This document shows, piece after piece, positions 23,238 through 63,458 of a DNA stretch of 64,000 nt. This stretch comes from Candidatus Sulfomarinibacter sp. (GTDB lineage: Bacteria; Acidobacteriota; Thermoanaerobaculia; Thermoanaerobaculales; Sulfomarinibacteraceae). Location of the stretch: NCBI GenBank assembly GCA_041560205.1, contig JBFFBV010000003.1:2211-66210 (forward strand). The letters run 5' to 3'. Made by a program: the position numbers and the translations under genes. The notes beneath the pieces were generated by a model. That model did not search any database. It was not told the origin of the DNA and worked only from the letters and a program-made list of their open reading frames with translations. Every line of letters starts with the position of its first letter. Position 1 is the stretch's first letter.

Positions 23238-23325
23238 TGAGGGCGTGAGGGGGTGAGGGCCTGCCCATCCGCAGAGATCTTTCAGACCCGCATCCCCGCA
23301 TTCCCCCATCCCCTCACTCCCTGCG
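23238..23325. repeat. Heptad-stutter hairpin element (TGAGGGC subfamily)
   Basis: TGAGGGCGTGAGGGGGTGAGGGCCTGCCCATCC ... CCCCATCCCCTCACTCCC. G-rich stutter arm and complementary C-rich arm. Ends 6 nt from the trkH stop. Confidence 0.7.
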
Positions 23326-23330
23326 AAGCG

Positions 23331-24767
23331 CTACCTGCGCCAGAACTCGCGGGAAAAGAGGGCGAGCAGGGTGAAGATCTCGAGGCGGCCGAAGAGCATG
23401 CAGCAGGCCAGCACGATCTTCACGACCCCGGGGAAGTGAGCGAAGTTGTCGTAGGCGCCGATCTCGCCGAGACCCGGACCGACGTTGCCGATCGAGGTCA
23501 GTCCGGCCGAGATCGCGGTCATCAGATCGTAGCCGTAAGCCGCCACCACTGCAGTGCCCGCCAGGGCAATCAACAGGTAGGCGGTGAGGAACGACCAGAT
23601 CCCCGACAGCACGGACTCGGAGACCACGGCGCCGCCGTACTTCACCGGCCGCACCGCGTGTGGATGAATGAGGCGGTGGAGGGTCGTGCGCAGGGAGGTG
23701 ATGGCGAGCAGGGCGCGCAAGCTCTTGATCCCTCCGCCGGTCGAGCCCGACATCCCGCCCAGCACCATCAAGCACAGCAGGACCAGCAGAGGCAGGGTGG
23801 CCCAAACTTCGAAGTCGGTCGTGCAATACCCGGTGGTGGTGAGGATGCTCACCGTCTGGAAGGCGGCGTGGCGAAGGCTGTCCGCAAGGCGCGCCCCGTC
23901 CTCGTGGACCGTCAGGAAGAGGATGATGGTGGCGACCACGATGACGCCGAGGAAATACCTGAGCTCGCTGTCGCGCCACACCTCCTTTGCGCGGCCGGTC
24001 AGGAGGCGGTAGTGGAGCACGAAGTTGATGCCGGCCAGCAGCATGAAAAAGATGACGATCCACTCCACCGTTGCCGAGCCGTACTCGCCAACCGACGTGT
24101 TGCGGGTCGAGAAACCGCCGGTCGCCAGGGTCGTGAACGAATGGCAGAGCGCATCGAACCAGCTGAGACCGGCGAGGCGGAGGGCGATCCACTCCGCGCC
24201 TGTAAAACCCACGTAGACCATCCACAGCGTGCGGGCAGTGGTTGCGAGCCGCGGCTTCACCTTGTCCGCGACCGGACCCGGTACCTCTGCCTTGAAGAGC
24301 TGCATGCCGCCGATCCCGAGCAGGGGGAGGATGGCGATGGTGAAAAGAATGATCCCCATTCCGCCGAGCCACTGACTCATGGCGCGCCACAGCAGGAGAG
24401 ACCTCGGGATGACGGTCGTGTCCCCGATCACGGTCGAACCCGTGGTGGTGAAGCCCGAGACCGACTCGAAGAGCGCGTCGACCGGTCCCAGAGCATCGGT
24501 CACGAGGTAGGGCACCGCACCGACGAGAGAGACCGCGATCCACGCGCCGCCGACGATCAGAAACCCGTCCCGTGGACGGATGTGCCGGTCGATCGGTGGC
24601 CGCACACCGACCAGCAACACACCGATGACGCCGGCCACCGCGATCGCCGCCACCCAGGGCTCGAGCGAATCGCGGAACACCAGGCTCGCTATCAGCGGCA
24701 GCACGAGAAAGGCGCAGTCCAGCAGCAGCAGCCAGCCGATCAGGTAGGTCGCGAAGCGGCGATTCAT
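23331..24767 (-). CDS. trkH: Trk-type K+ uptake protein TrkH
   Basis: ATG at 24767 (MNRRFATYLIGWLLLL). ESVSGFTTTGSTV and LATGGFSTRN selectivity-filter-like repeats. Confidence 0.9.
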   Translation of the reverse strand: MNRRFATYLIGWLLLLDCAFLVLPLIASLVFRDSLEPWVAAIAVAGVIGVLLVGVRPPIDRHIRPRDGFLIVGGAWIAVSLVGAVPYLVTDALGPVDALFESVSGFTTTGSTVIGDTTVIPRSLLLWRAMSQWLGGMGIILFTIAILPLLGIGGMQLFKAEVPGPVADKVKPRLATTARTLWMVYVGFTGAEWIALRLAGLSWFDALCHSFTTLATGGFSTRNTSVGEYGSATVEWIVIFFMLLAGINFVLHYRLLTGRAKEVWRDSELRYFLGVIVVATIILFLTVHEDGARLADSLRHAAFQTVSILTTTGYCTTDFEVWATLPLLVLLCLMVLGGMSGSTGGGIKSLRALLAITSLRTTLHRLIHPHAVRPVKYGGAVVSESVLSGIWSFLTAYLLIALAGTAVVAAYGYDLMTAISAGLTSIGNVGPGLGEIGAYDNFAHFPGVVKIVLACCMLFGRLEIFTLLALFSREFWRR

Positions 24768-24792
24768 GCCCGTCGCCTCACCCCGCCGCCCC

Positions 24793-26142
24793 TCAGGCCT
24801 CGAGAACGTCGTCGAGCCGACACGCCATCTCGGCGGTCGCGGCCACGATGACCTGGTCTCCGGGCTCGATCCGGTCGTCACCGCCGGGGATGAAGATCCG
24901 ATCGTCGCGCTGGACCGCGACCATGAGGATCCCGCGCGGCAGCCCGAGCGCGGAGAGCGGCGACGACACCAGACGGCTTCCTTCGGCCGCCTCGACCTCG
25001 AAGACCTCCACCGAGTCCTCGAGAAGGGCTGCGACCGACCTGATCCGGCCCTTGCGGGCGAAGTGGAGAGCGAGGCTCACCGACAGGAGGCGCGGCGAGA
25101 TGATGGCGTCGATGCCGAGGTCTCCGACCAAGCTCGAGAGTGCGGCGTTGTCGACCAACGCAAAGGTGTGCGCGGCGCCCATGCGGCCCGCCAGAAGACA
25201 GGCCACGACGTTCTCCTCGTGCCGGTCCGTGCAGGCGATAAAGCCCTCGACCCTCTCCGCACCTTCCTCGCGAAGGAGCTCTCGGTCGGTCGCGCTTCCG
25301 TGGACCACCAGGGTGTCCCCGAGATCGGCCGCCGCCCGGTCGCAGTCGGGCCGTCGTTCGTCGAAGAGCGTTACCGGAACCCCGGTCTCCTCGAGGCGAC
25401 GGGCGAGTGCCACGCCGATCCGCGTCGCACCAGCGACCATCACCCGCCGCTCGACGCCTCGGTGGAGCCCGAGCAGGACGAGCACGTTGTCGAGCTCGCC
25501 CGGGTCCATCGCGAAGTAGACCAGATCGCCGGCCCTGATCTCATCGTCGCCGAAGGGCACCCGCCACCGGCCATCACGGCGGATGGCGACCACCAGCATC
25601 GGCGTGGCGGGGAAAAGCAGCCTCAAATGTGACAGCAGCAGACCGGCAAACTCGCTGCCCGCCTTGATGTGAAAGCCTGCGATCAGCAGCTTGCCGTCGA
25701 AGAACGAGACGACGTCCACCGCACCGGGGACGGGCATCAACGACAGGATCTTCTCGACCGCAGCCATATCCGGATTGATGACGACACGCTCCTCGCCCGG
25801 CTCTCGGGCGATGCGGCGGAAACCCTCCTCGTGCCCGGTATCCCGCAGCCGCGCTGCGACGCGTGGCACCTTGAAGATCACCGAGCCCACGAGCGCCACC
25901 ACCATGTTGGCCTCGTCGGAATCGGTTGTGGCAAGCAGGAGCTCCGCGTTCTCGATGCCCGCGTTGATCAGTACGGGAATGGTCGCGCCGTTGCCGCAGA
26001 TGGTCTGGACGTCGAGCCGCTCGTTGAGGTCAGCGATGAGTTCGCGGCTCTGCTCCACCAGCAACACGTCGTGGCCGTCGCCCGAGAGCTTCTCTGCCAG
26101 GGTCGAGCCGACCAAGCCACCACCGACGACTACGACTCGCAT
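24793..26142 (-). CDS. trkA: Trk system NAD-binding protein TrkA
   Basis: ATG at 26142 (MRVVVVGGGLVGSTLAEKL). A second Rossmann repeat (VMVAGATRIGVALARRL) gives two RCK N+C modules. Confidence 0.9.
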   Translation of the reverse strand: MRVVVVGGGLVGSTLAEKLSGDGHDVLLVEQSRELIADLNERLDVQTICGNGATIPVLINAGIENAELLLATTDSDEANMVVALVGSVIFKVPRVAARLRDTGHEEGFRRIAREPGEERVVINPDMAAVEKILSLMPVPGAVDVVSFFDGKLLIAGFHIKAGSEFAGLLLSHLRLLFPATPMLVVAIRRDGRWRVPFGDDEIRAGDLVYFAMDPGELDNVLVLLGLHRGVERRVMVAGATRIGVALARRLEETGVPVTLFDERRPDCDRAAADLGDTLVVHGSATDRELLREEGAERVEGFIACTDRHEENVVACLLAGRMGAAHTFALVDNAALSSLVGDLGIDAIISPRLLSVSLALHFARKGRIRSVAALLEDSVEVFEVEAAEGSRLVSSPLSALGLPRGILMVAVQRDDRIFIPGGDDRIEPGDQVIVAATAEMACRLDDVLEA

Positions 26143-26203: not shown

Positions 26204-26236
26204 AGCTGTCAGCTCTCAGCTGTCAGCAGTCAAAGC
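26204..26236. repeat. Short heptad stutter (CTGTCAG/CTCTCAG/CTGTCAG/CAGTCAA)
   Basis: AGCTGTCAGCTCTCAGCTGTCAGCAGTCAAAGC in the trkA upstream intergenic region. Confidence 0.5.
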
Positions 26237-32461: not shown

Positions 32462-32857
32462 TCAGCCTTTTCGATTGATCAGCCTCCAGGTCATGGCCCG
32501 CACATCGTCGAAGGTCGAAAGCGTGCTTTCGGTTGTAGCGCGATTGATCGCCCCAGCATGCGCGAGGAGCCTCATGTGGCTGTCGACCTCTTTTGCCGAC
32601 GCGTCTGCAATTCGCCAGTGGTGGAATCGATCTCTGCCGGATCGGCCATGACCCTCAGAGAAGTTTGCTGGAACCGAGCTTGCTGAACGAATCACCTGAT
32701 CAGCGATCGACTTCAGCGGGGCTGGGACCTTCATCACAAGGGCGACGGCGTCGCCTGCAGCTTGAAGGGCCTTGTCATGGGCAATGAGAGTCGTGTGGTT
32801 GAGGGCGTCGTGACTCACCCCCGCCAGCGAGCAGGCTATGGCTGACCCCACTCCCAC
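32462..32857 (-). CDS. Four-helix-bundle protein (23S rRNA intervening-sequence protein family)
   Basis: QVIRSASSVPANFSEGHGR...ADASAKEVDSHMRLL matches the Q..RAa.Si..NIAEG ... GS..E pattern. Start uncertain (GTG 32857 or GTG 32818). Confidence 0.72.
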   Translation of the reverse strand: MGVGSAIACSLAGVSHDALNHTTLIAHDKALQAAGDAVALVMKVPAPLKSIADQVIRSASSVPANFSEGHGRSGRDRFHHWRIADASAKEVDSHMRLLAHAGAINRATTESTLSTFDDVRAMTWRLINRKG

Positions 32858-41568: not shown

Positions 41569-42326
41569 TGGCCCCGCTGTTGCTGACCGTTTTCGTGGCG
41601 AGCTTGGTCGGATCGCTGCACTGCATCGGCATGTGCGGGCCATTCGTGGCTTTCTACTCGGGCGCCGACTCATCGGGCGGCGCGCGTCGCCTGCTCAGTC
41701 ACGCCGCCTACTCGGGCGGGAGGCTTTTGACCTATGCGGTATTTGGTGTGGCGGCGGGCGCCGTCGGCGCGGCACTCGACGTTGCCGGCTCGTTGGCAGG
41801 ATTGCAGCGCATCGCCGCGATCCTTGCGGGCATCACCATGATCGCCTGGGGCATTCTGGCGTTGCTCCAGATCCGCGGCGTGCGGATCTTCCGTCACGGG
41901 TCCGGCGACGGGCGCATCGCACGCAGCCTGCGCCGTGGTTTTTCGCTGGTCAGTGACAAGCCACCGATAATCCGCGCCGCGGTGGTCGGCTTGTTGTCGG
42001 GCGTCCTGCCCTGCGGATGGCTGTGGGCCTTCGTCGTGACCGCTGCCGGCACTGGAAATTGGGCGAAAGGCGCTTTGGTCATGGTCGCCTTCTGGGCGGG
42101 AACGGTGCCGGCGCTGCTCGGCGTGGGCCTCGGCGCTCAGCTTTTGAGCGCGCCACTGCGTCGTCACGTGCCCGTCATCACCGCCGTTCTGCTGGTCTGT
42201 CTCGGCCTCTATGCCATCCTCGGCCGCCCCACCTCGGTCGACGCCGCGATCAGCAAACACCAGCACTCCCAAGCTGAGGTTCCCTCACCAAACGAGGCGG
42301 CCAGCACCTGCTGTGACGACGAATAG
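41568..42326 (+). CDS. TauE/SafE-DsbD_2-type membrane protein commonly linked to ccoGHIS
   Basis: ATG overlaps the ccoH stop (TGATG). SLHCIGMCGPF motif in TM1 and a second LPCGW motif. Six hydrophobic segments. Confidence 0.72.
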   Translation: MAPLLLTVFVASLVGSLHCIGMCGPFVAFYSGADSSGGARRLLSHAAYSGGRLLTYAVFGVAAGAVGAALDVAGSLAGLQRIAAILAGITMIAWGILALLQIRGVRIFRHGSGDGRIARSLRRGFSLVSDKPPIIRAAVVGLLSGVLPCGWLWAFVVTAAGTGNWAKGALVMVAFWAGTVPALLGVGLGAQLLSAPLRRHVPVITAVLLVCLGLYAILGRPTSVDAAISKHQHSQAEVPSPNEAASTCCDDE

Positions 42327-42404
42327 GGCCTGAGGGCGTGCGGACCTGAGGGCCTGCCCGCCCGACCCCACGGACTCCGTATCTTCCTCAAGCCCTCAAG
42401 CCTC
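42327..42404. repeat. Heptad-stutter hairpin element (TGAGGGC subfamily)
   Basis: GGGCCTGAGGGCGTGCGGACCTGAGGGCCTGCCCGCCCGACCCCACGGACT...CTCAAGCCCTCAAGCC. Shares the core TGAGGGCCTGCCCGCCC.ACCCCACGGACT with 63303-63398 (inverted there). Starts right after the TauE-like stop and overlaps the MaoC stop. Confidence 0.75.
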
Positions 42405-42797
42405 CACCATCACAACTGCTTCGCCTTCGAGGACGAGCTTGTCGTCCTGGTTGGTGCACACCGTGGAGAGCGTGACGATCGGTTTGTCCTCGCGAACTTT
42501 CAGAACCTCGATAGTGGCGGTCAAGGTGTCACCTGGGAAGACCGGCAGCTTGAATTTCAAGGTCTGGCTCAGATACACGGTCCCCGGCCCCGGCAGGTCA
42601 TTGGCGATGGTCGCCGAGATCAGCCCTGCGGAAATCATCCCGTGCGCGATGCGGCGTCCGAAACGCGTGCCGGCGGCGAAGTCGTCGTCGAGGTGAACCG
42701 GGTTGGTGTCCGTCGTGACATCCGCAAAGGCGCGGATCGTGTCGTCCGTGACGGTCATGGAGCGCGACGCGCTGTCACCTGGCTTCAGGGCCGGCAT
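42396..42797 (-). CDS. MaoC-like (R)-specific enoyl-CoA hydratase/dehydratase
   Basis: ATG at 42797 follows GAAGGAGG. Hot-dog fold motif DTNPVHLDDDFAAGTRFGRRIAHGM. Confidence 0.85.
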   Translation of the reverse strand: MPALKPGDSASRSMTVTDDTIRAFADVTTDTNPVHLDDDFAAGTRFGRRIAHGMISAGLISATIANDLPGPGTVYLSQTLKFKLPVFPGDTLTATIEVLKVREDKPIVTLSTVCTNQDDKLVLEGEAVVMVEA

Positions 42798-42798
42798 C

Positions 42799-43512
42799 TC
42801 AACCTCCTTCGTCACCCGATACGATGCCTTCGATCTCGGACAGATCGGCGATTTCATAGGTCGGCTTCGGGTAACCGTCCAAGGGCAGGCCGTTCGGGTT
42901 GAACCAGCAGGTGTCGATCCCGTAGTTCACTCCCGCGGCGACGTCAGAGCTCAGGCTGTCGCCGATCATCAGCACTTCCGACTTCGGTGGATTGCCCATC
43001 CGGGAGAATGCCTCGTCCATGTACTCCGGCTGAGGCTTGGCGACACCGATCTCGTCCGAGATCACCACATCCTCGAAGAAGTTTCGAATCGACGACCGGG
43101 CAAAGCGCGCACGCTGGACGACCGCGATGCCGTTGGTCGCCAGCAGGAGTTTGTGACGCGACGAGAAATCGCGAACCGCGGCCTCGGCCCCGGGAAGGAG
43201 CTGGGTCTGGAGGCCGAGGTCCTTCATGAATTGGTCGTTGAATGCCTCAGCGTCGACGTCGACTCCGAGCTCGTCGAAGAGGCGTTTGAAACGCACGACC
43301 CGAAGGTGCTCCAGATCGATTTCGCCACCTTCGAAGCGACCCCACAGGTCGGCGCTGATGGCCTTGTAGACGTCGTGAAGATGCGGCGAGTACTCGATCC
43401 CGTGGGTCCTCGTGGTCATCTGCAAGGCCGTCGTTTCACCCGCGTGGAAATCGAAGAGGGTGCCGTCGGCGTCGAAGATGAGCCATTGGTAGCGAGACCT
43501 CGGTTCCGTCAT
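42799..43512 (-). CDS. HAD-IA family hydrolase (YjjG/nucleotidase-like)
   Basis: Motif I FDADGTLFD, motif II LLATNG, motif III/IV MIGDSLSSDV. Confidence 0.85.
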   Translation of the reverse strand: MTEPRSRYQWLIFDADGTLFDFHAGETTALQMTTRTHGIEYSPHLHDVYKAISADLWGRFEGGEIDLEHLRVVRFKRLFDELGVDVDAEAFNDQFMKDLGLQTQLLPGAEAAVRDFSSRHKLLLATNGIAVVQRARFARSSIRNFFEDVVISDEIGVAKPQPEYMDEAFSRMGNPPKSEVLMIGDSLSSDVAAGVNYGIDTCWFNPNGLPLDGYPKPTYEIADLSEIEGIVSGDEGG

Positions 43513-45705: not shown

Positions 45706-45832
45706 GGCTGCCTCCAGTTCCAGTGTTGATGATCGGAGCCATGGTACTCCGAGCTCGAGATGAAAAGCCCATGAATAACTCACCGCCTCAGGTCGAGAGG
45801 TAGTGGGATACCGCCATGAGAGAATCGCCCCC

Positions 45833-48235
45833 ATGTCTGTGAGCTGCGATCACTGCAGTCTGCCGGTGCCGGCAGGGTTGGTGGAGGACGGGGCCGAGCT
45901 CCAGTTTTGCTGCAATGGCTGCCGGGTGGCCTACGAGGTGATCCACGAGCACGGGCTCGACGGCTACTACGACATCAAGGCGCGCATCGAGGTTCCCGCG
46001 CAGGCGGCGCAGCGGTCGGGCAGGGGCTTCGCCGAGTTCGACGATCCGGCCTTCCACGAGCTCTACTGCCGAAGGCTGCCCTCAGGGCTCGAGACGGTCG
46101 AGCTGTACCTCGAAGGGGTCCACTGCGCCGCCTGTGTGTGGCTGGTCGAAAAGGCGACCGTGGTCGTCGATGGCGTTGCCGAGGTGCGCCTTGATCTCGG
46201 TCGATCGCTCGCGACGGTCACCTGGAGCCCGGAAACCACGCCCCTCTCAGAGGTGGCGCGCTTCCTCGATTCGATCGGCTACGCGCCGCACCCCTTCCGC
46301 GGGGTCGAGGCGCGCGACATGGCGCGGCGCGAGGAGCGTGCACTGCTCATCCGCATCGCGGTGGCCGGCGCCATCGCCGGCAACGTGATGCTGATAGCCT
46401 TCGCGCTCTACGGCGGCCATTTCCACGGCATCAAGGACGAGTTCAGGACGCTTTTCCGCTGGGTCAGCCTGGGCCTCGCCACGCCCTCGGTGCTGTGGTG
46501 CGCCTCGGTTTTCTACCGCGGTGCCTGGGGGGCACTCAAGACCAAAAGTCTCCACATGGACCTGCCGATTGCTATCGGCGTTCTCGCCGGCTTCATCCAG
46601 GGTGCCATCAACACCATCCGCGACGCGGGCGAGGTGTACTTCGATTCGGTGACGGCCCTGATCTTCTTCCTCCTGGTCGGTCGTTTCCTGCAACGGAGAC
46701 AGCAACGCAAGGCGGCGAGCTCGACCGAGCTCCTCTTCTCGCTCGCTCCGACGACCGCGCGGCTGATCGACCGAGAGGGCGTCCGAGACGTCCCGCTCGA
46801 GGCCCTCGCCTCCGGCGCCACGGTCGAGGTGCGCGCCGGGGAGTCGATCCCAGCAGACGGCATGGTTGTCGAGGGTTTCTCGACCCTCGACCGATCGCTA
46901 CTCACGGGTGAGTCGGCTCCCGAGCCCGTCGCCGTCGGAGAACCCGTCCACGCCGGCACCGTCAACCTCGGCAGCCGGCTGGTGGTCGAGGTTCGGGCGA
47001 CCGGAGAGGACACGCGCGTCGGTCGCCTCATGCGCCTGGTCGAAGAGGGCGCCATGCGACGCGCCCCCGTTGTTCTCCTGGCGGACCGGATCTCGGGCTG
47101 GTTCGTGGCCGTCGTCCTCGCACTCGCGGCTCTGACAGTCACCGTCTGGCTGAGGCTCGACCCCGAGCACGCGGTCGAGCACGCAGTCGCACTCCTCATC
47201 GTGAGCTGCCCCTGCGCCCTCGGTCTCGCCACCCCGTTGGCCGTCAGCGCCGCCATCGGCCGCGCCGCCCGCAGGCAGATTCTGATCAAGGGAGGCGATG
47301 CCCTGGAGAATCTTGCCCGACCCGGCCGCATGCTTCTCGACAAGACTGGAACGATCACCGAGGGACGGCTGGCGGTGGTCCGCTGGTGGGGCGACGCCAG
47401 TGTCAAGCCGTTGGTGGCATCACTCGAGCAGCATTCGGCCCACCCCGTGGCTCGGGCTCTCGCCGCCATCGCACCCGTCGAAGATCTGCCTGAAGCGTCC
47501 GAGGTCGAGGAGATCATGGGGGTCGGGATCAGCGGCGTCTGCAACGGTCGGAGGATCATGATCGCTTCGATCGCCCACGTCGAGAGTGAATTCGGAGGAC
47601 TCCCGGTTGGCGCCGCTTCGGCCACGGAGGAGTTCGCCACCGAAGGTCTGAGCCCCGTGGCGGTCACGGTCGACCAGCAGGTGGTCGCCGTCGCAGGGAT
47701 CGGCGACCCCTTGCGCACCGACAGCGCGGCTTCGGTTGCCGCCATCCGCGACGACGGATGGCGGGTCGAAATCCTTTCCGGGGACCACCCGACGGTCGTG
47801 TGGTCGGTCGCCGAACAGATTGGCATCGAAGCGACCGCAGCGCATGGTGGGGTCGCGCCCGAGCAAAAGCTCGAAGCGGTGCGGATGGGATCGGAGGAAG
47901 AGACGACCGCGATGGTCGGCGACGGTGTCAACGACGCCGCTGCGTTGGCCGCTGCCACGGTCGGTATCGGCGTTCATGGTGGTGCCGAGGCGGCGCTCGC
48001 CGCCGCGGACGTCTACCTCGCCCGTCCCGGGCTCGCGCCGGTGGTCGAGCTTCTCGAAGGCGCTCGAAAGACCCTGGGAGTCATCCGCCGTAATCTCGTC
48101 TTCTCGCTGACCTACAACGTGATTGCCGTGAGCTTCGCCATCACCGGCCACATGAGTCCGATCATGGCGGCGATCCTGATGCCGCTCAGCAGCATGACCG
48201 TGGTGCTGAGTTCGTATCGGGCGAAAACGTTTTAA
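45833..48235 (+). CDS. ccoI: Copper-translocating P1B-type ATPase CcoI/FixI
   Basis: ATG at 45833. N-terminus CDHCSLPVP...FCCNGCRVAYEVI, TM CPC motif (SCPCALGLATP), DKTGTITEG, and GDGVNDAAAL. Confidence 0.92.
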   Translation: MSVSCDHCSLPVPAGLVEDGAELQFCCNGCRVAYEVIHEHGLDGYYDIKARIEVPAQAAQRSGRGFAEFDDPAFHELYCRRLPSGLETVELYLEGVHCAACVWLVEKATVVVDGVAEVRLDLGRSLATVTWSPETTPLSEVARFLDSIGYAPHPFRGVEARDMARREERALLIRIAVAGAIAGNVMLIAFALYGGHFHGIKDEFRTLFRWVSLGLATPSVLWCASVFYRGAWGALKTKSLHMDLPIAIGVLAGFIQGAINTIRDAGEVYFDSVTALIFFLLVGRFLQRRQQRKAASSTELLFSLAPTTARLIDREGVRDVPLEALASGATVEVRAGESIPADGMVVEGFSTLDRSLLTGESAPEPVAVGEPVHAGTVNLGSRLVVEVRATGEDTRVGRLMRLVEEGAMRRAPVVLLADRISGWFVAVVLALAALTVTVWLRLDPEHAVEHAVALLIVSCPCALGLATPLAVSAAIGRAARRQILIKGGDALENLARPGRMLLDKTGTITEGRLAVVRWWGDASVKPLVASLEQHSAHPVARALAAIAPVEDLPEASEVEEIMGVGISGVCNGRRIMIASIAHVESEFGGLPVGAASATEEFATEGLSPVAVTVDQQVVAVAGIGDPLRTDSAASVAAIRDDGWRVEILSGDHPTVVWSVAEQIGIEATAAHGGVAPEQKLEAVRMGSEEETTAMVGDGVNDAAALAAATVGIGVHGGAEAALAAADVYLARPGLAPVVELLEGARKTLGVIRRNLVFSLTYNVIAVSFAITGHMSPIMAAILMPLSSMTVVLSSYRAKTF

Positions 48236-48280
48236 GGTTCGAGGCTCGAGGCTTGGGGATTGGGACTTGGGACGTGGGGC
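48236..48280. repeat. Heptad stutter directly after the ccoI stop
   Basis: GGTTCGAGGCTCGAGGCTTGGGGATTGGGACTTGGGACGTGGGGC: degenerate 7-mer tandem units. Confidence 0.55.
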
Positions 48281-48489: not shown

Positions 48490-48803
48490 GCTCTTGAGTC
48501 CATCCGCATCTCGGTGTAACCACGGTCACCGATCCGCACAATAGAAGCTCAAGGAGGTCTTCGTATGTGGCGTTCTCCTCCCGTTCCCCGGAGAACCGAC
48601 CGGAAGCGCCCTGATCCGGTCAAGGGAGATGTGACTCGTCCTGCCGGAAGACCCAGCCCCAACACCATCTATTCAACCTCATAACAACCCCCCCACCCCC
48701 TGACCGTAACGGCGTCCGGGCGCCGTGGCGGTCTCTTCCATCGGCCTTCCGCCTCGCAACCGCACATTCCGCGCAGGAGGCCAGTCGGCGATTCGTCAAC
48801 GCA

Positions 48804-48952
48804 AGTAAAGGGTGAGGAAGTAAAGGGTAAAGGGTGAAGAAGTAGAGGATAAGGAGCCGATATTCTGGCGGGCGTGGGTGGGCCTAACCCTTTGCTCTTG
48901 ACTCTTTACTGGTTTTGGCGGGTCGGCTAAACTCTTTACTCTTAACTTTTTA
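48804..48952. repeat. Heptad-stutter hairpin element (TAAAGGG / CTCTTTAC subfamily)
   Basis: Left arm GTAAAGGGTGAGGAAGTAAAGGGTAAAGGGTGAAGAAGTAGAGG. Right arm CCCTTTGCTCTTGACTCTTTACTGG...ACTCTTTACTCTTAACTTTTTAC. Abuts and overlaps the queA stop. Confidence 0.75.
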
Positions 48953-49978
48953 CACAATGAGCATCGCGTCGCCGTAGGAGAAGAAGCGGTAGCGTTTTGC
49001 GACGGCTTCGGCGTACGCGGACAGAATCCGGTCTCGGCCCGCGAAGGCGCTGACGAGCATCAGCAGGGTCGATCGCGGTAAGTGGAAGTTTGTCAACAAC
49101 GCGCCGACGCCGCGGAATTGGAAGCCGGGAGTGATGAAGATGCGGGTCCACCCTTCACCGGGCTGCACCCGTCCCTCACCCACCGCCAGAGCACCTTCGA
49201 GCGCTCGGACCGACGTGGTCCCGACACAAACGATGCGGCGTTCGTCATCAAGAGCGCGGTTGACGGCCGCTGCGGTCTGCTCCGAAAAGCGGTACCACTC
49301 CTCGTGCATCTCGTGGTCGGCGATGTCTTCGACCGACACCGGGCGAAAGGTGCCGAGGCCGACGTGGAGGGTCAGGGTCGCGATCTCGACCCCGACGTCC
49401 CGGATCCCATCCAGGAGACCCTCGGTGAAGTGCAGGCCCGCAGTCGGTGCCGCAACCGCGCCTGGGATCGATGCATAGACCGTCTGGTAGTCCTGCATGT
49501 CCGACGCCTTCCCGCCTCTCGGCCTCCCGATGTAGGGCGGCAGCGGCATCTCGCCGATGCGATCCAGCCGCTCCAGGTCCAACGGCGGATCGAATCGCAT
49601 GAGCCAACGTCCCTCGCCACGACGCTCTTCGGGGACGGCCGCACCGCCGTCTCCGAGCTCGAGCTGCTCACCGATGCGTGCGCGCGCCGAAGGCCGCAGC
49701 AAGGTTTCCCAATGTTTTTCTCCGGCCTTTCTCAGAAGCAGGAGCTCGAATGTGCGGCCGGTCGGGCGGCGGGTATAGAGACGCGCCGGGATCACGCGCG
49801 TGTTGTTGAGCAACAGGAGTTCGTCGGACCGCAAGTGCCCGACGATGTCACCGATATCGCGGTGTTTCAGACCGCCACCCGAACGGTCGAGCACGAGCAG
49901 CCGGGATTCCCCTCGCGGCACCGGGATCTGCGCGATCAGCTCGCGCGGCAGCTCGAAATCGAAATCGTCCGTTCTCAT
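48950..49978 (-). CDS. queA: S-adenosylmethionine:tRNA ribosyltransferase-isomerase
   Basis: ATG at 49978 (MRTDDFDFELPRELIAQIPV). ...GAVAAPTAGLHFT... and a C-terminal RFFSYGDAMLI. Confidence 0.93.
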   Translation of the reverse strand: MRTDDFDFELPRELIAQIPVPRGESRLLVLDRSGGGLKHRDIGDIVGHLRSDELLLLNNTRVIPARLYTRRPTGRTFELLLLRKAGEKHWETLLRPSARARIGEQLELGDGGAAVPEERRGEGRWLMRFDPPLDLERLDRIGEMPLPPYIGRPRGGKASDMQDYQTVYASIPGAVAAPTAGLHFTEGLLDGIRDVGVEIATLTLHVGLGTFRPVSVEDIADHEMHEEWYRFSEQTAAAVNRALDDERRIVCVGTTSVRALEGALAVGEGRVQPGEGWTRIFITPGFQFRGVGALLTNFHLPRSTLLMLVSAFAGRDRILSAYAEAVAKRYRFFSYGDAMLIV

Positions 49979-53966: not shown

Positions 53967-55195
53967 GCCGAGCCTCCGTCGCCTTCGGTCTCTGGCGCTG
54001 GTGCTTCATCGGGCGATCCTCGGAGAGATCCAGCCTCGGCCTCGGGATCGCCTTCGCTGAGACGCAGGGCCATCCCATCGGTGACCGCGTCCAGTGGCGT
54101 CAGCACGATCAGATCGCCGCTGTCGAGCCCTGATGTGACCAGCGCCGACTCGCGATCGGATCTCGCGACCTGGACATCACGGATGTCCATCGCACCGTCG
54201 CTGAAGACCCAGACCCTGTCGCCCTCATGGACGGCATACCGAGGCACCGCCACCACATCGGCCAGCGTCCGTCCAAAGATCGTGACGTTGACGAAGGTGC
54301 CAGGCAAGAGCGCCGGTCGTTCGCGGTTGGAGTCGTACGGTTTCTCGACCTCCACCACAACGTGCACCATGCGCGACGTCTGGTCGACCTCTGCTTCCAT
54401 CCGCTTGACCCGACCCTTCCACGTGAAGCTCATACCACCAAACTCCGCCGTCACCTCGGCCTCGGGCCCGGAACCGCCAGCGCGAGTCGGGACACTGAAC
54501 CACGCCATCTCGCGGCTGTCGAGGGGCACCCTGACTTCAACGGCGTCGGTCCCGTACACTCGCGCCAGGCGTGCGCCCATTGTCACGAATTGACCGACAT
54601 CGATACTTTCACTCACCACGACGCCGTCGAAGGGCAGGGAGATCCTGGTCCGCTCGAGGTTGAGCTCGGTCACCGCGAGGTCTGCCCCGGCAGCCTCGAG
54701 CTCGGCTCGAGCCTGCCGGATCTGCGGCTCGCGCACAACCAGCCCTGAAGGCGGCTCCTCGCCAGGATGCAGCTCATCCCACTCCTGCCTCGCCACCTCG
54801 GCTTCAGCCTCCTCGCGCTGCAGATTGACGCGCGCCCGAGCAACCGCCGCCCGGGCGCGCTCGACAGCGAGCTCGTAGTCACGCGGCTCGATCACGACCA
54901 ACGTCTCCCCGGCCTCGAAGAATCCACCCGCGACCAGTGACTGACTCACGGAGACGACCTTCCCGCCGACCTGGGGAACGATGTCGACCGCGACCTTCGC
55001 TACCACTTCACCGTGACCCGAGACCGCCACCGGGATGTCGGCCGCAGACGCGGTCATCACTTCAACCAGCGGTCCCTGCGGCGGGCTTTCCTGGCGCGGC
55101 GGCGCCTTTCGGGCTGAGGCGATCAACGCGGCAGCAGCCACGCCGGCAAGGAGGACGATGATCGGCACCACCATTTTGAGGACTCTTGGAGACAT
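53963..55195 (-). CDS. RND efflux periplasmic adaptor (membrane fusion protein)
   Basis: ATG at 55195 overlaps the upstream stop (TGATG). N-terminal TM. Coiled-coil hairpin (VARARVNLQREEAEAEVARQ...IRQARAELEAAGADLAVTELNLERT). 4-nt overlap with the RND gene. Confidence 0.88.
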   Translation of the reverse strand: MSPRVLKMVVPIIVLLAGVAAAALIASARKAPPRQESPPQGPLVEVMTASAADIPVAVSGHGEVVAKVAVDIVPQVGGKVVSVSQSLVAGGFFEAGETLVVIEPRDYELAVERARAAVARARVNLQREEAEAEVARQEWDELHPGEEPPSGLVVREPQIRQARAELEAAGADLAVTELNLERTRISLPFDGVVVSESIDVGQFVTMGARLARVYGTDAVEVRVPLDSREMAWFSVPTRAGGSGPEAEVTAEFGGMSFTWKGRVKRMEAEVDQTSRMVHVVVEVEKPYDSNRERPALLPGTFVNVTIFGRTLADVVAVPRYAVHEGDRVWVFSDGAMDIRDVQVARSDRESALVTSGLDSGDLIVLTPLDAVTDGMALRLSEGDPEAEAGSLRGSPDEAPAPETEGDGGSA

Positions 55196-56721
55196 CAGGA
55201 CACCTCTGACAGTTGTGGGTTTTGAGTTTTGATTTTCGATTCGGACTCTTCTGGCTTGGCCTGCGCGACGGTCCCTTCGGCGCTCGCGGCCTGGATCGTA
55301 GCGCCGTCCGTCCCCCAATCGCCGCCCAGCGCGAGGAAGAGATCGATGCGGGAGTTCCACACGTCGCTGGTGGCGTTGATGAACGCTTGCTCCGCGAGTC
55401 GCAGGCGTCGCTCGGTTTCGAGAACCGTCAGCAGGGTGCCGACCCCTCGCTGGTAGCGCTCCTTGGCGAGGCGGTCCGCCGCCCGCGCCTCGGTCACCCG
55501 TTGGTTTGAAAATTCATAGTTCTCGCGCGAGGATGCGTTCAGAACCAATGCCTCTTCGACCTCCCGAAGCGCATTCAGGACCGCTCCCGCGTAGACCGCC
55601 CCAGCTTGTTCGGCGCGGGCCTCCGCCGCATCGACATCCGCCCGGCGTTGGCCACCCGTAAAGAGCGGACCGATCAGGTTCGCGACTGCGTTGTAGACCA
55701 GACCGTCCGAGATCGTCAGATCGTTCAGCTTGTCGGAGGAAGCTCCCACCGAACCGGTCAGGCTGAGGTCCGGGTAGAGACTCGCCATCGCTGCGCCGAC
55801 GCCGTAGGTCGCGGCAGCGAGCCGCATCTCCGCCTGACGAAGGTCAGGCCGGCGATCGAGCAGCTCGGCCGGCAGGCCGAGCGGCACCGGTTCGAGCGAC
55901 GGCAGCTGGGCCAGGGAGTCTGGCAGGGCCTCTCCGCTGCCCGGACGGCGGCCGACCAGGACGTCCAGCGCCAGCCGGGCCTGCTCCAGGGCGCCGGCGA
56001 TGACCGCTTCCGAGGCGCGAGCCGATGAGTAGTTTTCCCGCGCGAGATAGAGCTCGAGCGCCTCGGCAATGCCGGCGCGATATCGACGCTCGACGGTTCG
56101 CAGGGTCGACTCCCAGCTGGCGGTGATCTGACGATTAATGTCCAGCGCCCACTCGGCCGTCGCCACCAGCACCCGAGCCCGCACCACGCCGGCGACAACC
56201 GAGTGCAGCACGGCCTGTTGCGCAGCTTCCTCCGCCAGCAGGTTCGACCACGCCGACTGTTGTGTTCGCTTCAGCCTTCCGAAGAGGTCAGCCTGCCACG
56301 AGATGTTGAAATCGTATGAGTAGGTGGTGGATTCGATCTGCTGGCGGCCGATATTTGGCAGCACGAAGGAAATCTGCTGTGTCGAGCCATCCACGCCATA
56401 GCCCAACTGAGGCAATCGGGCACCGCCCGCGCGGCGGAGTGCGGCTTCCGCTTCCATGACTCGTGCCGCCGCCGCCCGGAGGTCAGGGTTGTTCTCGAGG
56501 GCGAGCTCCACGAGTTCGGTGGTCTTGACATCTCCAAACTCTCGCCACCACGGCGTCACCTCCGGCAGCTCAGCGTCACTCTGGTGTGCGGCATATTTCC
56601 ATGAATCGGAGACGTCGGCCGCGGAGTTCGGGCGCTCCGGCTCGGGTCCGAGTGTGCAGCCGACCGTGAGCGCCAGCGCGGCGGACATGGTGATCATGAA
56701 AGAGGTTCGTCGATCAATCAT
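55195..56721 (-). CDS. Outer-membrane efflux lipoprotein (TolC/NodT family)
   Basis: ATG at 56721. Lipobox LALTVGC. Two OEP repeats. The first 227 codons of ORF 55195..57402 overlap tetR and are rejected. Confidence 0.88.
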   Translation of the reverse strand: MIDRRTSFMITMSAALALTVGCTLGPEPERPNSAADVSDSWKYAAHQSDAELPEVTPWWREFGDVKTTELVELALENNPDLRAAAARVMEAEAALRRAGGARLPQLGYGVDGSTQQISFVLPNIGRQQIESTTYSYDFNISWQADLFGRLKRTQQSAWSNLLAEEAAQQAVLHSVVAGVVRARVLVATAEWALDINRQITASWESTLRTVERRYRAGIAEALELYLARENYSSARASEAVIAGALEQARLALDVLVGRRPGSGEALPDSLAQLPSLEPVPLGLPAELLDRRPDLRQAEMRLAAATYGVGAAMASLYPDLSLTGSVGASSDKLNDLTISDGLVYNAVANLIGPLFTGGQRRADVDAAEARAEQAGAVYAGAVLNALREVEEALVLNASSRENYEFSNQRVTEARAADRLAKERYQRGVGTLLTVLETERRLRLAEQAFINATSDVWNSRIDLFLALGGDWGTDGATIQAASAEGTVAQAKPEESESKIKTQNPQLSEVS

Positions 56722-57425
56722 GGTCCGACCTCCGATGTGATGCTCTCGTCCGAGGCCTCGGCTGGCACCCGTGCACAGGCATGGATACCTCCCGCGGCAA
56801 AACGCACGAAATGGGGAATATATTCGGCAGGGCCGGTCGGAATGACATGGGACCGGTCCCGCGAGGCAAACAGGTGGTGTGCCCTGAGGGCGTGCAGTAA
56901 CTGGCCGACCATGGCCATGATGCACAGCCGGGCATCCGTGGCTTCGAGCCGCGGACCGGAGGCTTCGAGCGCAACCAGAGATTTCTCGAGGATCGGATGG
57001 ATGAACTCCGAGAGGAACACATCGCGCGGGAGTCGCGGATCGAACATCTCCCGCGACACCAGGGCCATGAAATGGCGGCCCCGGCCTGCATCTACCAACG
57101 GGTCGATGAAACCTTCGGCGAAAGAGCGCAGGAACTCCTCGAGCGTCGGCGCCGGCGTGCGCTGGATGAGCTCGTCGAGCACCGACAGCCTCTGCCTGCG
57201 CAGTTCCTGCAGCATCGACCGGAAGGTTTCGAGGTACAGCTTGTCTTTTCCGCCGAAGTGGTAGTTGACCGAAGCCACGTTGCATTCGGCCTCGGTCGTG
57301 ATATCCCGCACCGACGTCGCGTCGAAACCTCTCTCGGCAAACAGCTTCTGGGCCGCCAGGAGGATCCGATCTCGGGTGTCCTCGCACTCTCGTGTCTTGC
57401 ATTCATGGGTGACCCGTCCGTTCAT
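56718..57425 (-). CDS. TetR/AcrR-family transcriptional regulator
   Basis: ATG at 57425 follows GGGAG. HTH ILLAAQKLFAERGFDATSVRDITTEAECNVASVNYHFGGKDKLY. ATGA overlap with the OMF gene. Confidence 0.9.
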   Translation of the reverse strand: MNGRVTHECKTRECEDTRDRILLAAQKLFAERGFDATSVRDITTEAECNVASVNYHFGGKDKLYLETFRSMLQELRRQRLSVLDELIQRTPAPTLEEFLRSFAEGFIDPLVDAGRGRHFMALVSREMFDPRLPRDVFLSEFIHPILEKSLVALEASGPRLEATDARLCIMAMVGQLLHALRAHHLFASRDRSHVIPTGPAEYIPHFVRFAAGGIHACARVPAEASDESITSEVGP

Positions 57426-59803: not shown

Positions 59804-59853
59804 TGATCCTCCAGAGCCCCTCAGGGGAGTCGGCATTCTAGCGCAGCGCAGAT

Positions 59854-59959
59854 GGTTGAGGGTTCAGAGTTAAGGGTCAAGGGTCAAGGGTTGAGAAGTG
59901 AGCTGGAGCGTTGCATCATCTCCCGTCGAAACCATGTTTCCCGATCTCGTCTTAACTCT

Positions 59960-59977
<18 letters not shown>
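59854..59977. repeat. Heptad-stutter hairpin element (TCAAGGG / CTCTTTAC subfamily)
   Basis: Left arm GGTTGAGGGTTCAGAGTTAAGGGTCAAGGGTCAAGGGTTGAGAAGTGAGC. Right arm CTTAACTCTTTACTGCTCACTCTTGAC. The right arm covers the last 6 codons and the stop of pgi. Confidence 0.75.
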
Positions 59978-61675
<1,698 letters not shown>

Positions 61676-61751
61676 CGTTCCTCCCAGTTGGAACATGACG
61701 AGGATATCTTCGATCGAGAAGTACGGCTACAGCAGAGCCGCCCCGTGTCCT

Positions 61752-61880
61752 AAGGTCCTGGGGTCCTGGGGTCTTGCGGGCTTGGGGTCCCGGGGTCTTG
61801 GTGATCCTGGCTGTTACGGTCTCATGGCCTCATGACCTCACGACCTCATGACCTCAAGACCTGGGTGGGAGGGTGGGTGG
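61752..61880. repeat. Heptad-stutter hairpin element (GGGGTCC / TGACCTC subfamily)
   Basis: Left arm AAGGTCCTGGGGTCCTGGGGTCTTGCGGGCTTGGGGTCCCGGGGTCTTGG. Right arm CTCATGGCCTCATGACCTCACGACCTCATGACCTCAAGACCTGG. Ends 4 nt from the stop of the glutamate-cysteine-ligase-like gene. Confidence 0.75.
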
Positions 61881-61883
61881 AAA

Positions 61884-63251
61884 TCAGCTGCTCGCCCACT
61901 TGAGCGCGCGCGCCGGGTCCTCCGCCAGGAGCTCCAGGACCTCGTCCGTCGGCATGCGGCCCCGGGCGGTGTAGCGCTCGAGGTAAGCTTCGACCGCCGC
62001 GACAGCTTCGTCGTCGACGTAGCCTGCCGGGAGCGACCGCACGCCCTCGAGACCGATCTGCCACAGCCCGAAGGCGAGCTCCCGGAGCATGGGATCACGA
62101 ACACCGTCCATCGCGGCCTTTCGCCACAGCGTGGGTAGCTGAGCACGGATACCGCTCAGGAGACCGAGGGCCTTCCTGCGGGCTCCTTCCTCATAGAGGA
62201 GAGCGGCCATCAATGTGACCGGGACCGAGCGCCACCGATCGGGCAAGGCCTCGCCCGCCCGCAGCTCGAGGAAGCCTCTCGGCCTCACTTCGAAGAACAA
62301 GGTCGTGAGGTGGTAGTCGAGGTCGTCGGCGGTCGGCCACCCCCAGCGCGGGTGGCCTTCGCGAATCCATTTATCGAAACCACAACCGGGGCAGCCGGGC
62401 TCGAAGTGCTCATCGGACACGCGGAAGATCATCACATCCGCCTCGATCGCCGCTTGCCCCCACTCGCCGCGCGGATCATCTCCCGGCCCTTCCACGAGCA
62501 GGCGTGGGAAGCCGCTGCGGGTCGGATCGAGTTCCTGCCACGCACGCGCGCGGCTGCACACCGCGCCGAGCCCCGGGCTCGACGCGAAGCTGGCGGTCAG
62601 GAGAGGGCTTGCCAGGTTGGCGACCAGCCACCGCTCCTGCCACACGCCCTCCGGGCCGAGATCGAGGTTGATCTGCAGGCTCGCGGTATGCCGCATCATC
62701 ACGGCACCCCAGTGCCCCCGCTGACGGTAGTAGGCAGCCTGGGCCGTGTACCTTCCCGCGCGGAGCTGCTGTGGCACGGTCTCGACATCGTGCCAGACGT
62801 CGATTCCGAGAGCCGCGAGCGAGACATTGTGGCGTTCGAAAGCAGCCCGCAGCCGCCCGAGGACATCTCCGACATCGATGCACGCCGCGGCGACGCTCGG
62901 GTACACAGCGGTGGAGTGCTCCACCTGCGCCCCGGGTTCGAAGGTCAGCCTTCCTCCGCCCTCGACCGGGTACTCGATCGGGCCCGGCTGGCGACTGCTT
63001 CGGGGGCCGATGCGGTCATCGGAGGCAGCCAGCTCATCGACCACCTCGAGAACGCCGGTCGCATCCGGCTGGGTCAGGAGCAGCCTTCCCTGCGGCCGAC
63101 CCCTGGCGTCGCGGACGATGGGGAAAAACTCGGGCTCCAATCCGATCCCTCCGAGGACCTCCTCCCGAGCTGGGTCGGGAAAGGCCCTCTGTCCCGCGCG
63201 ATGTCGCGCCTCGTCCAGCGAGATGGCGGCCCTGGGATCTTGAGTCGGCAT
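61884..63251 (-). CDS. Glutamate-cysteine ligase family protein (GCS2/EgtA-like)
   Basis: GLEPEFFPIV, EPGAQVEHST and MRHTASLQINLD are typical of carboxylate-amine ligase / gamma-GCS family 2. Confidence 0.72.
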   Translation of the reverse strand: MPTQDPRAAISLDEARHRAGQRAFPDPAREEVLGGIGLEPEFFPIVRDARGRPQGRLLLTQPDATGVLEVVDELAASDDRIGPRSSRQPGPIEYPVEGGGRLTFEPGAQVEHSTAVYPSVAAACIDVGDVLGRLRAAFERHNVSLAALGIDVWHDVETVPQQLRAGRYTAQAAYYRQRGHWGAVMMRHTASLQINLDLGPEGVWQERWLVANLASPLLTASFASSPGLGAVCSRARAWQELDPTRSGFPRLLVEGPGDDPRGEWGQAAIEADVMIFRVSDEHFEPGCPGCGFDKWIREGHPRWGWPTADDLDYHLTTLFFEVRPRGFLELRAGEALPDRWRSVPVTLMAALLYEEGARRKALGLLSGIRAQLPTLWRKAAMDGVRDPMLRELAFGLWQIGLEGVRSLPAGYVDDEAVAAVEAYLERYTARGRMPTDEVLELLAEDPARALKWASS

Positions 63252-63302: not shown

Positions 63303-63398
63303 CCGCTGAGGGCGTGGGGGCGTGAGGGCTTGAGGTCAAGGCAAGCAAGTCCGTGGGGGTGGGCGGGCAGGCCCTCAGGACCTCAGGTCCTCAAGTCC
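63303..63398. repeat. Heptad-stutter hairpin element (TGAGGGC subfamily, inverted copy)
   Basis: CTGAGGGCGTGGGGGCGTGAGGGCTTGAGGTCAAGG...AGTCCGTGGGGGTGGGCGGGCAGGCCCTCAGGACCTCAGGTCCTCAAG. The reverse complement of its core matches 42345-42377. Confidence 0.75.
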
Positions 63399-63403
63399 AA
63401 CAA

Positions 63404-63429
63404 AAAGGCGCGGCCGAAGCCGCGCCTTT
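63404..63429 (-). terminator. Rho-independent terminator of the tetraheme cytochrome gene
   Basis: Perfect 11-bp stem AAAGGCGCGGC/GCCGCGCCTTT with a CGAA loop. On the minus strand it is followed by TTTTTGTTGG, 30 nt after the stop. Confidence 0.8.
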
Positions 63430-63458
63430 GAAGTCGTTGGTCAATTCCCTGCGACGTG

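Follow-up and report, generated by a model that had tools for sequence, protein, structure and literature searches.

Gene-less hairpin elements with arms of 6–8-nt tandem repeats in a Candidatus Sulfomarinibacter genome and their probable relation to S23p cassettes

Arrays of tandem heptamers have been recorded in cyanobacteria (among them the STRR heptamers), Xanthomonas, Geobacter, and Beggiatoa, none of them with an accepted function. The Xanthomonas and Nostoc heptamers (GGGNATC / GGGGAYT) are enriched between genes, prefer four units, are found at most 50 bp from stop codons, are underrepresented where genes diverge, form 70–75 convergent inverted pairs per Xanthomonas genome, and fold into G-quadruplexes (G4) in vitro; no connection was made there between the repeats and S23p proteins (PF05635) (Rehm et al. 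2015, PMC4692102). Geobacter metallireducens carries paired 'global regulator binding sites', that is, three to five tandem 7–9-nt units in pairs on opposite strands at variable distance, mostly intergenic and in dozens of copies, which were read as IHF/HU sites and reported with no link to S23p or stop codons (Aklujkar et al. 2009, PMC2700814). The IVS of Coxiella burnetii encloses an S23p gene in a ~28-bp stem of terminal inverted repeats, with GACAGAT heptamers upstream of the S23p start that vary in number between strains and of which the first is an RNase III cut site (Warrier et al. 2016, PMC4990558). Finally, marine Beggiatoaceae have TAACTGA direct repeats, mostly just upstream of start codons, with one inverted case (MacGregor 2015, PMC4679880). 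Our full-text literature searches found no paper joining intergenic heptamer hairpins to S23p.

The stretch analyzed here, 64,000 nucleotides of a Candidatus Sulfomarinibacter sp. (hereafter designated the window; G000:C3:2211–66210), belongs to a draft genome (G000) of 4.68 Mb in 184 contigs with 64% G+C and 93% completeness, which recurs in marine and sediment metagenomes of several studies. A sequence-only reading had listed eight arrays in it and taken them for one genome-specific, undescribed, REP/BIME-like family that probably acts as terminators or mRNA-stabilizing hairpins. Its structural description proved good, and its functional label mostly wrong. The class is in fact published, although unexplained: the window elements are a new member of the heptamer repeats that include Xanthomonas/Nostoc GGGNATC, the Geobacter paired sites, and the Coxiella IVS (PMC4692102, PMC2700814, PMC4990558). 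New here are a strictly oriented G-triplet head and sites that persist while their units turn over.

Likeness to the Xanthomonas/Nostoc heptamers extends to intergenic enrichment, about four units, convergent pairs near stops, and G-quadruplex-prone sequence; tandem units within the 5–11-nt range of that class are enriched in non-coding DNA, and fewer pairs lie between divergent genes. Moreover, Xanthomonas campestris encodes the pentameric S23p protein XCC0516 (PDB 2GSC), which the G000 copies match (E 1e-24). Unlike Xanthomonas and Nostoc, however, G000 has not one family but at least five unrelated ones of 6, 7, and 8 nt, so that the notion of a single family falls, and several of its units lack G runs, with a separate G-triplet head instead. 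Stems of at least 20 bp made of tandem-heptamer terminal inverted repeats are common to the Coxiella IVS and the G000 elements and cassettes, whereas the G000 elements are situated in the spacers of protein genes or at gene ends instead of in helix 25 or 45 of 23S rRNA, and the window copies are gene-less. The Geobacter class TCTCCGTS[Y] resembles in sequence the CCGTCT hexamers of G000. The TAACTGA arrays of Beggiatoaceae are likewise short, intergenic, and phylogenetically patchy, but they are direct repeats of one unit, whereas convergent pairs behind stop codons dominate here.

Like REP/BIME sequences, the elements are imperfect palindromes that lie outside genes in large numbers, at gene 3′ ends. 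REPs, however, copy one conserved palindrome, whereas the elements of G000 have periodic arms and locus-unique loops, and none of the five Y1-transposase (Y1_Tnp) genes is flanked by arrays, for which reason the proposed REP/BIME likeness and a RAYT/REP link were both rejected. One of these five genes, RAYT-like, lies at G000:C72:20500–21400 amid another kind of repeat: a tandem unit of 43 nt together with a palindrome of the CCGGGGCTCACGCCCCGGG type, which also occurs in other spacers (e.g. C6:11546–11891). These repeats have the look of a classical REP system distinct from the array elements.

Array elements in the window

Arrays were detected with Tandem Repeats Finder and checked by direct reading of the sequence, and gene positions are those of a crude codon-usage gene caller made for this analysis, which called 87% of the genome coding and 13% intergenic. 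Period-7/8 arrays were present at all eight sites listed earlier, as claimed. Convergent array pairs occupy six of them (23238, 42327, 48804, 59854, 61752, and 63303), in the order G- or purine-rich array, spacer, and complementary C-rich array, which bears out the expectation that most copies could form imperfect hairpins. Solo arrays occupy the other two (26204 and 48236), and a ninth array, also solo, was found at 55211–55236. The elements and the neighboring features that concern them are as follows.

23238–23325: paired hairpin, TGAGGGCN family; 5′ arm (TGAGGGCG)x3, then C-triplet head at ~23260–23272; C-rich 3′ arm, end 5 nt before the stop of gene 23331–24881 (minus strand); fold z −3.25
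26204–26236: solo (AGCTGTC)x4, upstream of the start of a minus-strand gene with its end at ~26199; unit similar to those in the S23p cassette arms at G000:C80:20016
32489–32788, minus strand: PF05635 gene (S23p / 23S rRNA IVS protein, Avd-like), subfamily 2, 54.7 bits, above cut-off (G000:C3:34699–34998); no flanking arrays detectable; usual start context apparently mutated
42325–42404: paired hairpin, TGAGGGCN family, in a convergent spacer; C-triplet head at ~42353–42369; adjoins the stop at 42324–42326 and overlaps the 3′ end of gene 42396–42857 (minus strand)
48235–48280: solo G-rich arrays (AGGCTCG)x2.7 and (CTTGGGA)x3.9, beginning at the stop codon of gene 45803–48235 (plus strand)
48804–48953: paired hairpin, RGTNAAG family; purine-rich 5′ arm; G-triplet head at 48870–48883 ahead of the 3′ arm; outer end extends into the queA stop at 48950
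55211–55236: solo (AGTTTTG)x3.7, GARTTNN family, within the terminal ~14 codons of the TolC-like ORF 55195–57402 (minus strand), whose tail reads ...SKIKTQNPQLSEVS
59854–59983: paired hairpin, RGTNAAG family; 3′ arm (59950–59977) gives the last six codons and stop of pgi (59960–61696, minus strand)
61752–61880: paired hairpin, GGGGTCYT family; arms (GGTCCTGG)x7 and (CTCATGAC)x5; G-triplet run at 61862–61880 after the 3′ arm; end 3 nt before the stop of gene 61884–63251 (minus strand)
63303–63398: paired hairpin, TGAGGGCN family; G-triplet head at 63355–63371; flanked by the terminator at 63405–63430 and by the next gene's promoter region
63405–63430, minus strand: canonical intrinsic terminator with 8-bp GC stem, TTCG loop, and T run

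Six of the eight listed sites lie on a stop codon or a few bases from one, and to this extent the claim that the elements abut stop codons stands; the array at 26204 is upstream of a start codon instead. The elements sit in free DNA directly behind stop codons, at times providing the stop, and the stutter does supply C-terminal codons, as proposed, in pgi (the last six codons and the stop) and in the TolC-like tail. At 55193–55197, beside the in-frame heptamer array, the TolC-like stop and the probable ATG of the minus-strand gene that follows share bases; this overlap suggests translational coupling of the two genes. The shared core TGAGGGCCTGCCC(G/A)(C/T)CC and its extension to ...CCCCACGGACT were found as claimed and equal the G-triplet head. 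Folding of the single window elements is uneven and strand-dependent (z from +0.1 to −4.4). The terminator at 63405–63430 is conserved in every relative compared and directly adjoins the variable 63303 hairpin.

The number of units changes by slippage, as had been supposed: 15 nt, close to two units, are missing at 48803 from a contig of a different sediment study. Other metagenome contigs aligned to the window have joints between elements that look like assembly chimeras formed via the shared arrays. An Rfam scan of the window and seven cassette loci matched zero families, an exact-protein look-up of two neighboring genes returned no record, and relatives of queA among the contigs searched were just ~50%-identity matches from many phyla, of no use for synteny.

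Anatomy, placement, and turnover of the elements

Genome-wide, ~550 intergenic arrays of period 6–8 and at least 81 strict hairpins were found. The intergenic 13% of the genome contains 60% of the period-7, 52% of the period-8, and 41% of the period-6 arrays, and just 11–15% of those with periods 9 and 12; any array at all is present in 383 of 2251 spacers (17%). A reverse-complement partner within 200 nt accompanied 261 of the 656 merged intergenic arrays, as against 14 in the reversed-sequence control and 52 in the complement control. The (GTNAAGR)x3 motif occurred 98 times and (CCGTNN)x3-CCGT 155 times in G000, compared with 0 and 1 for their reversed controls. The arrays fall mainly into the following unit families.

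CCGTNN hexamers: 124 arrays
TGAGGNNN / GGGGTCYT octamers: 82 arrays
GATGCNN: 61 arrays
GARTTNN: 47 arrays
RGTNAAG: 45 arrays

The design is constant: two convergent arrays, with about four 6–8-nt units (~30 nt) per arm, around a ~40-nt locus-unique spacer. The 162 arms of the 81 strict pairs have a median of 4.0 units (interquartile range 3.5–4.7) and measure 27–33 nt whatever the period, and the spacer between them has a median of 38 nt. Within the units, a 4–5-nt core is kept and variation is confined to fixed positions (1–3 free positions), a pattern unlike neutral decay. Polarity is strict as well. Where a downstream partner exists, the G-rich arm is the 5′ one in 44 of 51 period-7 and 23 of 25 period-8 arrays, and the C-rich arm is the 5′ one in 31 of 32 hexamer arrays. 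The CCGTNN hexamers, with this polarity opposite to that of the 7/8-nt families, also have no head and no cognate S23p cassette in G000. In the 7/8-nt families, a G-triplet head (GGGYGGGYGGG) often occupies the inner edge of an arm: CCCNCCC appears within the loop just in its first 20 nt (17 of 52 elements), and GGGNGGG just in its last 20 nt (17 of 52) or directly downstream (9), the reverse arrangement being seen 0 times in loops and once in flanks. The loops themselves are locus-specific: of 67, only 12 have a match elsewhere, in each case to a head or a contig-end duplicate. What is repeated is therefore the half-element (head plus array) and not a MITE-like whole copy; a MITE was rejected because interiors are locus-unique and not conserved.

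The genome-wide search also confirmed further copies and a bias to gene 3′ ends. The adjacent 3′ end lies at a median of 11 nt from the strict pairs (within 10 nt in 40 of 81) and the adjacent 5′ end at 58 nt; the element includes the stop codon at 15 of 85 such 3′ ends. Divergent spacers, which make up 23% of all spacers, hold 10 of the 81 pairs. With a mean length of 102 nt, the pairs fold at −45 kcal/mol on average, compared with −29 kcal/mol for shuffles (median z −5.1), so that the expected excess of stability over shuffled sequence holds for the strict pairs, whereas it is uneven for the window elements.

The assignment of the elements as terminators failed. No T tract follows the 3′ arms, a consensus scan found no terminator-like site inside elements, and the 63303 element is downstream of a canonical terminator. 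Although the two strands of a single element may differ in folding by up to 28 kcal/mol via G-U pairs, the sign of the difference has no relation to gene direction or GC skew, and neither sense nor antisense was favored among the strict pairs (24 vs 21, p = 0.7). An intrinsic terminator was rejected on these grounds (no T tract, no sense-strand bias), and the folding lends no support to selection at the RNA level. The RNA data, two runs of shallow undirected contigs possibly containing DNA, are too thin to show transcript ends.

Comparison with relatives showed that neither the units nor their sites are genome-specific, as had been assumed. The same unit families were found in each of the 24 genus genomes sampled, and a second family of the order shares the design. 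GARTTNN x4 was present in 24 of 24 genus genomes (60–600 matches) and, outside the genus, in 2 of the 16 genomes from the other family; (CCGTNN)x3-CCGT was present in 22 of 24 (1–106 matches) and reached ~500 matches in one genus of the second family. Synteny around pgi is kept in relatives at ~75% DNA identity, and three orthologous spacers are occupied by arrays in 11 of 14, 13 of 15, and 8 of 11 genomes, with many different units. Occupied sites thus persist while the unit sequence turns over between species. The spacer orthologous to 59837–59959 contains a conserved ~300-nt insert (starting ...GATGGTGGGCTGAAGCCCACCCTACGG...) between repeat arms in three relatives (G024, G005, and G017), with no S23p match in this insert.

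Unit families shared with S23p cassettes

The arms of the window's unit families also bracket PF05635 genes elsewhere in G000 and across the order. PF05635 (S23p), a small protein that first became known through ribosomal RNA insertions, is a pentameric four-helix bundle regarded as a homologue of the Avd protein of diversity-generating retroelements (DGR) (PMC10053308). G000 has 15 PF05635 genes above the curated cut-off, three of them with an internal stop, and at least six of the 15 lie between arrays whose unit families also occur in the window, as follows.

C63:1581 (C63:1581–1892): S23p gene flanked by RGTNAAG units
C58:16440: S23p gene flanked by TGAGGGCN units
C3:99197: S23p gene flanked by GGGGTCYT units
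C43:18601: S23p gene flanked by GATGCNN units, plus a G-triplet head
C178:1374: S23p gene flanked by GARTTNN units
C80:20016: S23p gene flanked by AGCYGTT units

Such a repeat-armed PF05635 cassette has the design of the protein-coding 23S rRNA IVS. At the nine array sites of the window, no PF05635 gene, nor any other, lies between arms; the sites are therefore classed as gene-less relatives and not as cassettes. Among 41 cassettes sampled across the order, nearly all have tandem arrays on both sides, mostly mutually complementary. S23p clades in the protein tree follow the unit families across species: protein identity correlates with unit distance (Spearman rho −0.31, matched by 0 of 300 permutations), and units are shared by 75–83% of S23p pairs with at least 60% identity, compared with 6–11% below 60%. 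This co-variation fades below 60% identity, and it may reflect co-inheritance alone.

Occurrence of the gene is patchy, with 0 to 68 PF05635 copies per genome. One relative (G008) has at least 12 copies of equal bit score on many contigs, with ORFs of 155–156 aa, a sign that one cassette may recently have spread in a burst; another (G010) has a frameshifted S23p gene in the spacer orthologous to 59837–59959. In a third (G040), S23p genes lie amid long CCGTNN-type arrays that are direct, not inverted, the sole genome in which such cassettes were seen. The S23p clade cognate to GARTTNN was found in 12 of the 24 genus genomes, whereas the arrays are in all 24; three of the 12 genomes without this clade are at least 95% complete, and one relative (G012) has arrays and zero PF05635 matches. 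An S23p gene is thus not needed to keep the arrays.

Two further observations concern the S23p genes themselves. Those of subfamily 2 at C12:66997, C28:18825, C9:5192, and C70:10830 share a conserved ~130-nt upstream leader with no Rfam family, in which a perfect 20-nt inverted repeat (GGTCACCTCCGGGTCGTTCA ... complement) surrounds a second hairpin and runs up to the start codon. The GARTTNN-linked clade has two or three paralogues 1.6–5 kb apart in eight relatives (G013:C376, G011:C16, G006:C12, G015:C1, G024:C24, G021:C38, G008:C1, and G003:C75), which may represent a conserved multi-copy locus.

Several other sources of such elements were considered. A diversity-generating retroelement was rejected, because G000 has no reverse transcriptase match (PF00078) and the S23p cassettes are single genes among housekeeping genes. 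Telomerase- or RT-like templated addition would fit the polarity and was dropped with the same absence of a reverse transcriptase from the assembly. Integron attC-like sites were dropped because the neighbors are housekeeping genes and not cassettes.

Origin and significance of the elements

Collectively, we judge that the sites, which are gene-less repeat-armed hairpin elements, are probably selfish or nearly neutral derivatives or partners of S23p cassettes, and not terminators built by the host. Neither an exact empty site nor a target duplication was recovered, so that their mobility is one that we infer. When transcribed, they would form long imperfect stems that, by analogy with the Coxiella IVS, may be cut by RNase III, and such cleavage would separate or destabilize the neighboring transcripts. 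Neither RNase III (PF14622, PF00636) nor 23S rRNA was found in the 93%-complete assembly. The rnc gene is single-copy in 25 of the 26 high-quality genomes searched, the one without being G000, and both gaps therefore probably stem from assembly; for the same reason, the idea of a lineage without RNase III that tolerates long hairpins was rejected.

The elements could instead be REP-like hairpins selected by the host, that is, slippage-built 3′ stems that terminate transcription or protect mRNA from 3′ exonucleases and at which S23p genes land. Stable stems close to stop codons would be so explained, as would the occupation of the same spacers across species despite sequence change, which is expected under selection for structure. 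This reading is nevertheless unlikely, since T tracts are absent, the 63303 element follows a canonical terminator that is itself conserved, folding favors neither strand (24 sense vs 21 antisense), and divergent genes border 10 of the 81 strict pairs. Structure alone, moreover, leaves the strict polarity and the oriented head unexplained, and the unit families are those of S23p cassettes and co-vary with the protein clade. The symmetry of the elements and their lack of transcription-strand bias would suit sites acting as DNA, either by cooperative binding (nucleoid/IHF/HU-type or ribbon-helix-helix proteins) or as G-quadruplexes or cruciforms in replication, recombination, or genome stability. 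Strictly placed G3N1G3N1G3 heads are typical quadruplex-forming motifs, Xanthomonas units form G4 in vitro (Rehm et al., PMC4692102), the unit pattern is a conserved 4–5-nt core with 1–3 free positions, and regulator binding was proposed for the Geobacter paired sites (Aklujkar et al., PMC2700814). We hold this to be less likely still: a single host factor could not read many unrelated units in one genome, the GARTTNN and GATGCNN units have no G runs, the position behind stop codons and not in promoters speaks against regulator sites, and no candidate protein besides S23p was found.

Least probable, and in our view very improbable, is a mutational by-product, in which 6–8-nt slippage (LSSR) yields the arrays, quasi-palindrome correction the inverted pairs, and chance neighborhood the link to S23p. 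Heptamers are the commonest long SSR in many genomes, with polymerase slippage proposed as the cause, according to the account of Mrazek et al. 2007 given in PMC4679880, and both the unit-number polymorphism at 48803 and the locus-specific spacers agree with such an origin. However, the kept core and variation at fixed positions are unlike neutral decay, polarity and head orientation are strict, the same families are common to 24 species, and nearly all of the 41 sampled S23p genes are flanked by arrays on both sides, compared with 17% of all spacers that hold any array.

Returning to elements derived from or partnered with S23p cassettes, we tentatively suggest, as a possibility well short of an even chance, that each S23p clade recognizes its own arm units, one per subunit of the pentamer, and acts in trans on gene-less hairpins with the same unit. 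Such a pairing of units with the five subunits of the ring would account for the preferred number of four to five units. If this is true, the cassettes and the gene-less elements would form an autonomous/non-autonomous system that depends on an Avd-like protein and lacks a reverse transcriptase, and the G-triplet head would be their common handle.

For annotation, the elements matter because they create or replace stop codons and C-terminal tails, as in pgi and the TolC-like gene, and they break metagenome assemblies. A satisfactory model has to account for arms of about four units, for the strict polarity and the orientation of the G-triplet head, for spacers unique to each locus, and for sites that persist while their units change. 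PF05635 is a large family of solved structure for which no role is known except in the Avd protein of DGRs, and G000 offers a clean case, with several unit families that each have a matching S23p cassette. Recognition of the units by S23p, if true, would provide a function both for the PF05635 family and for heptamer repeats known since 1990.
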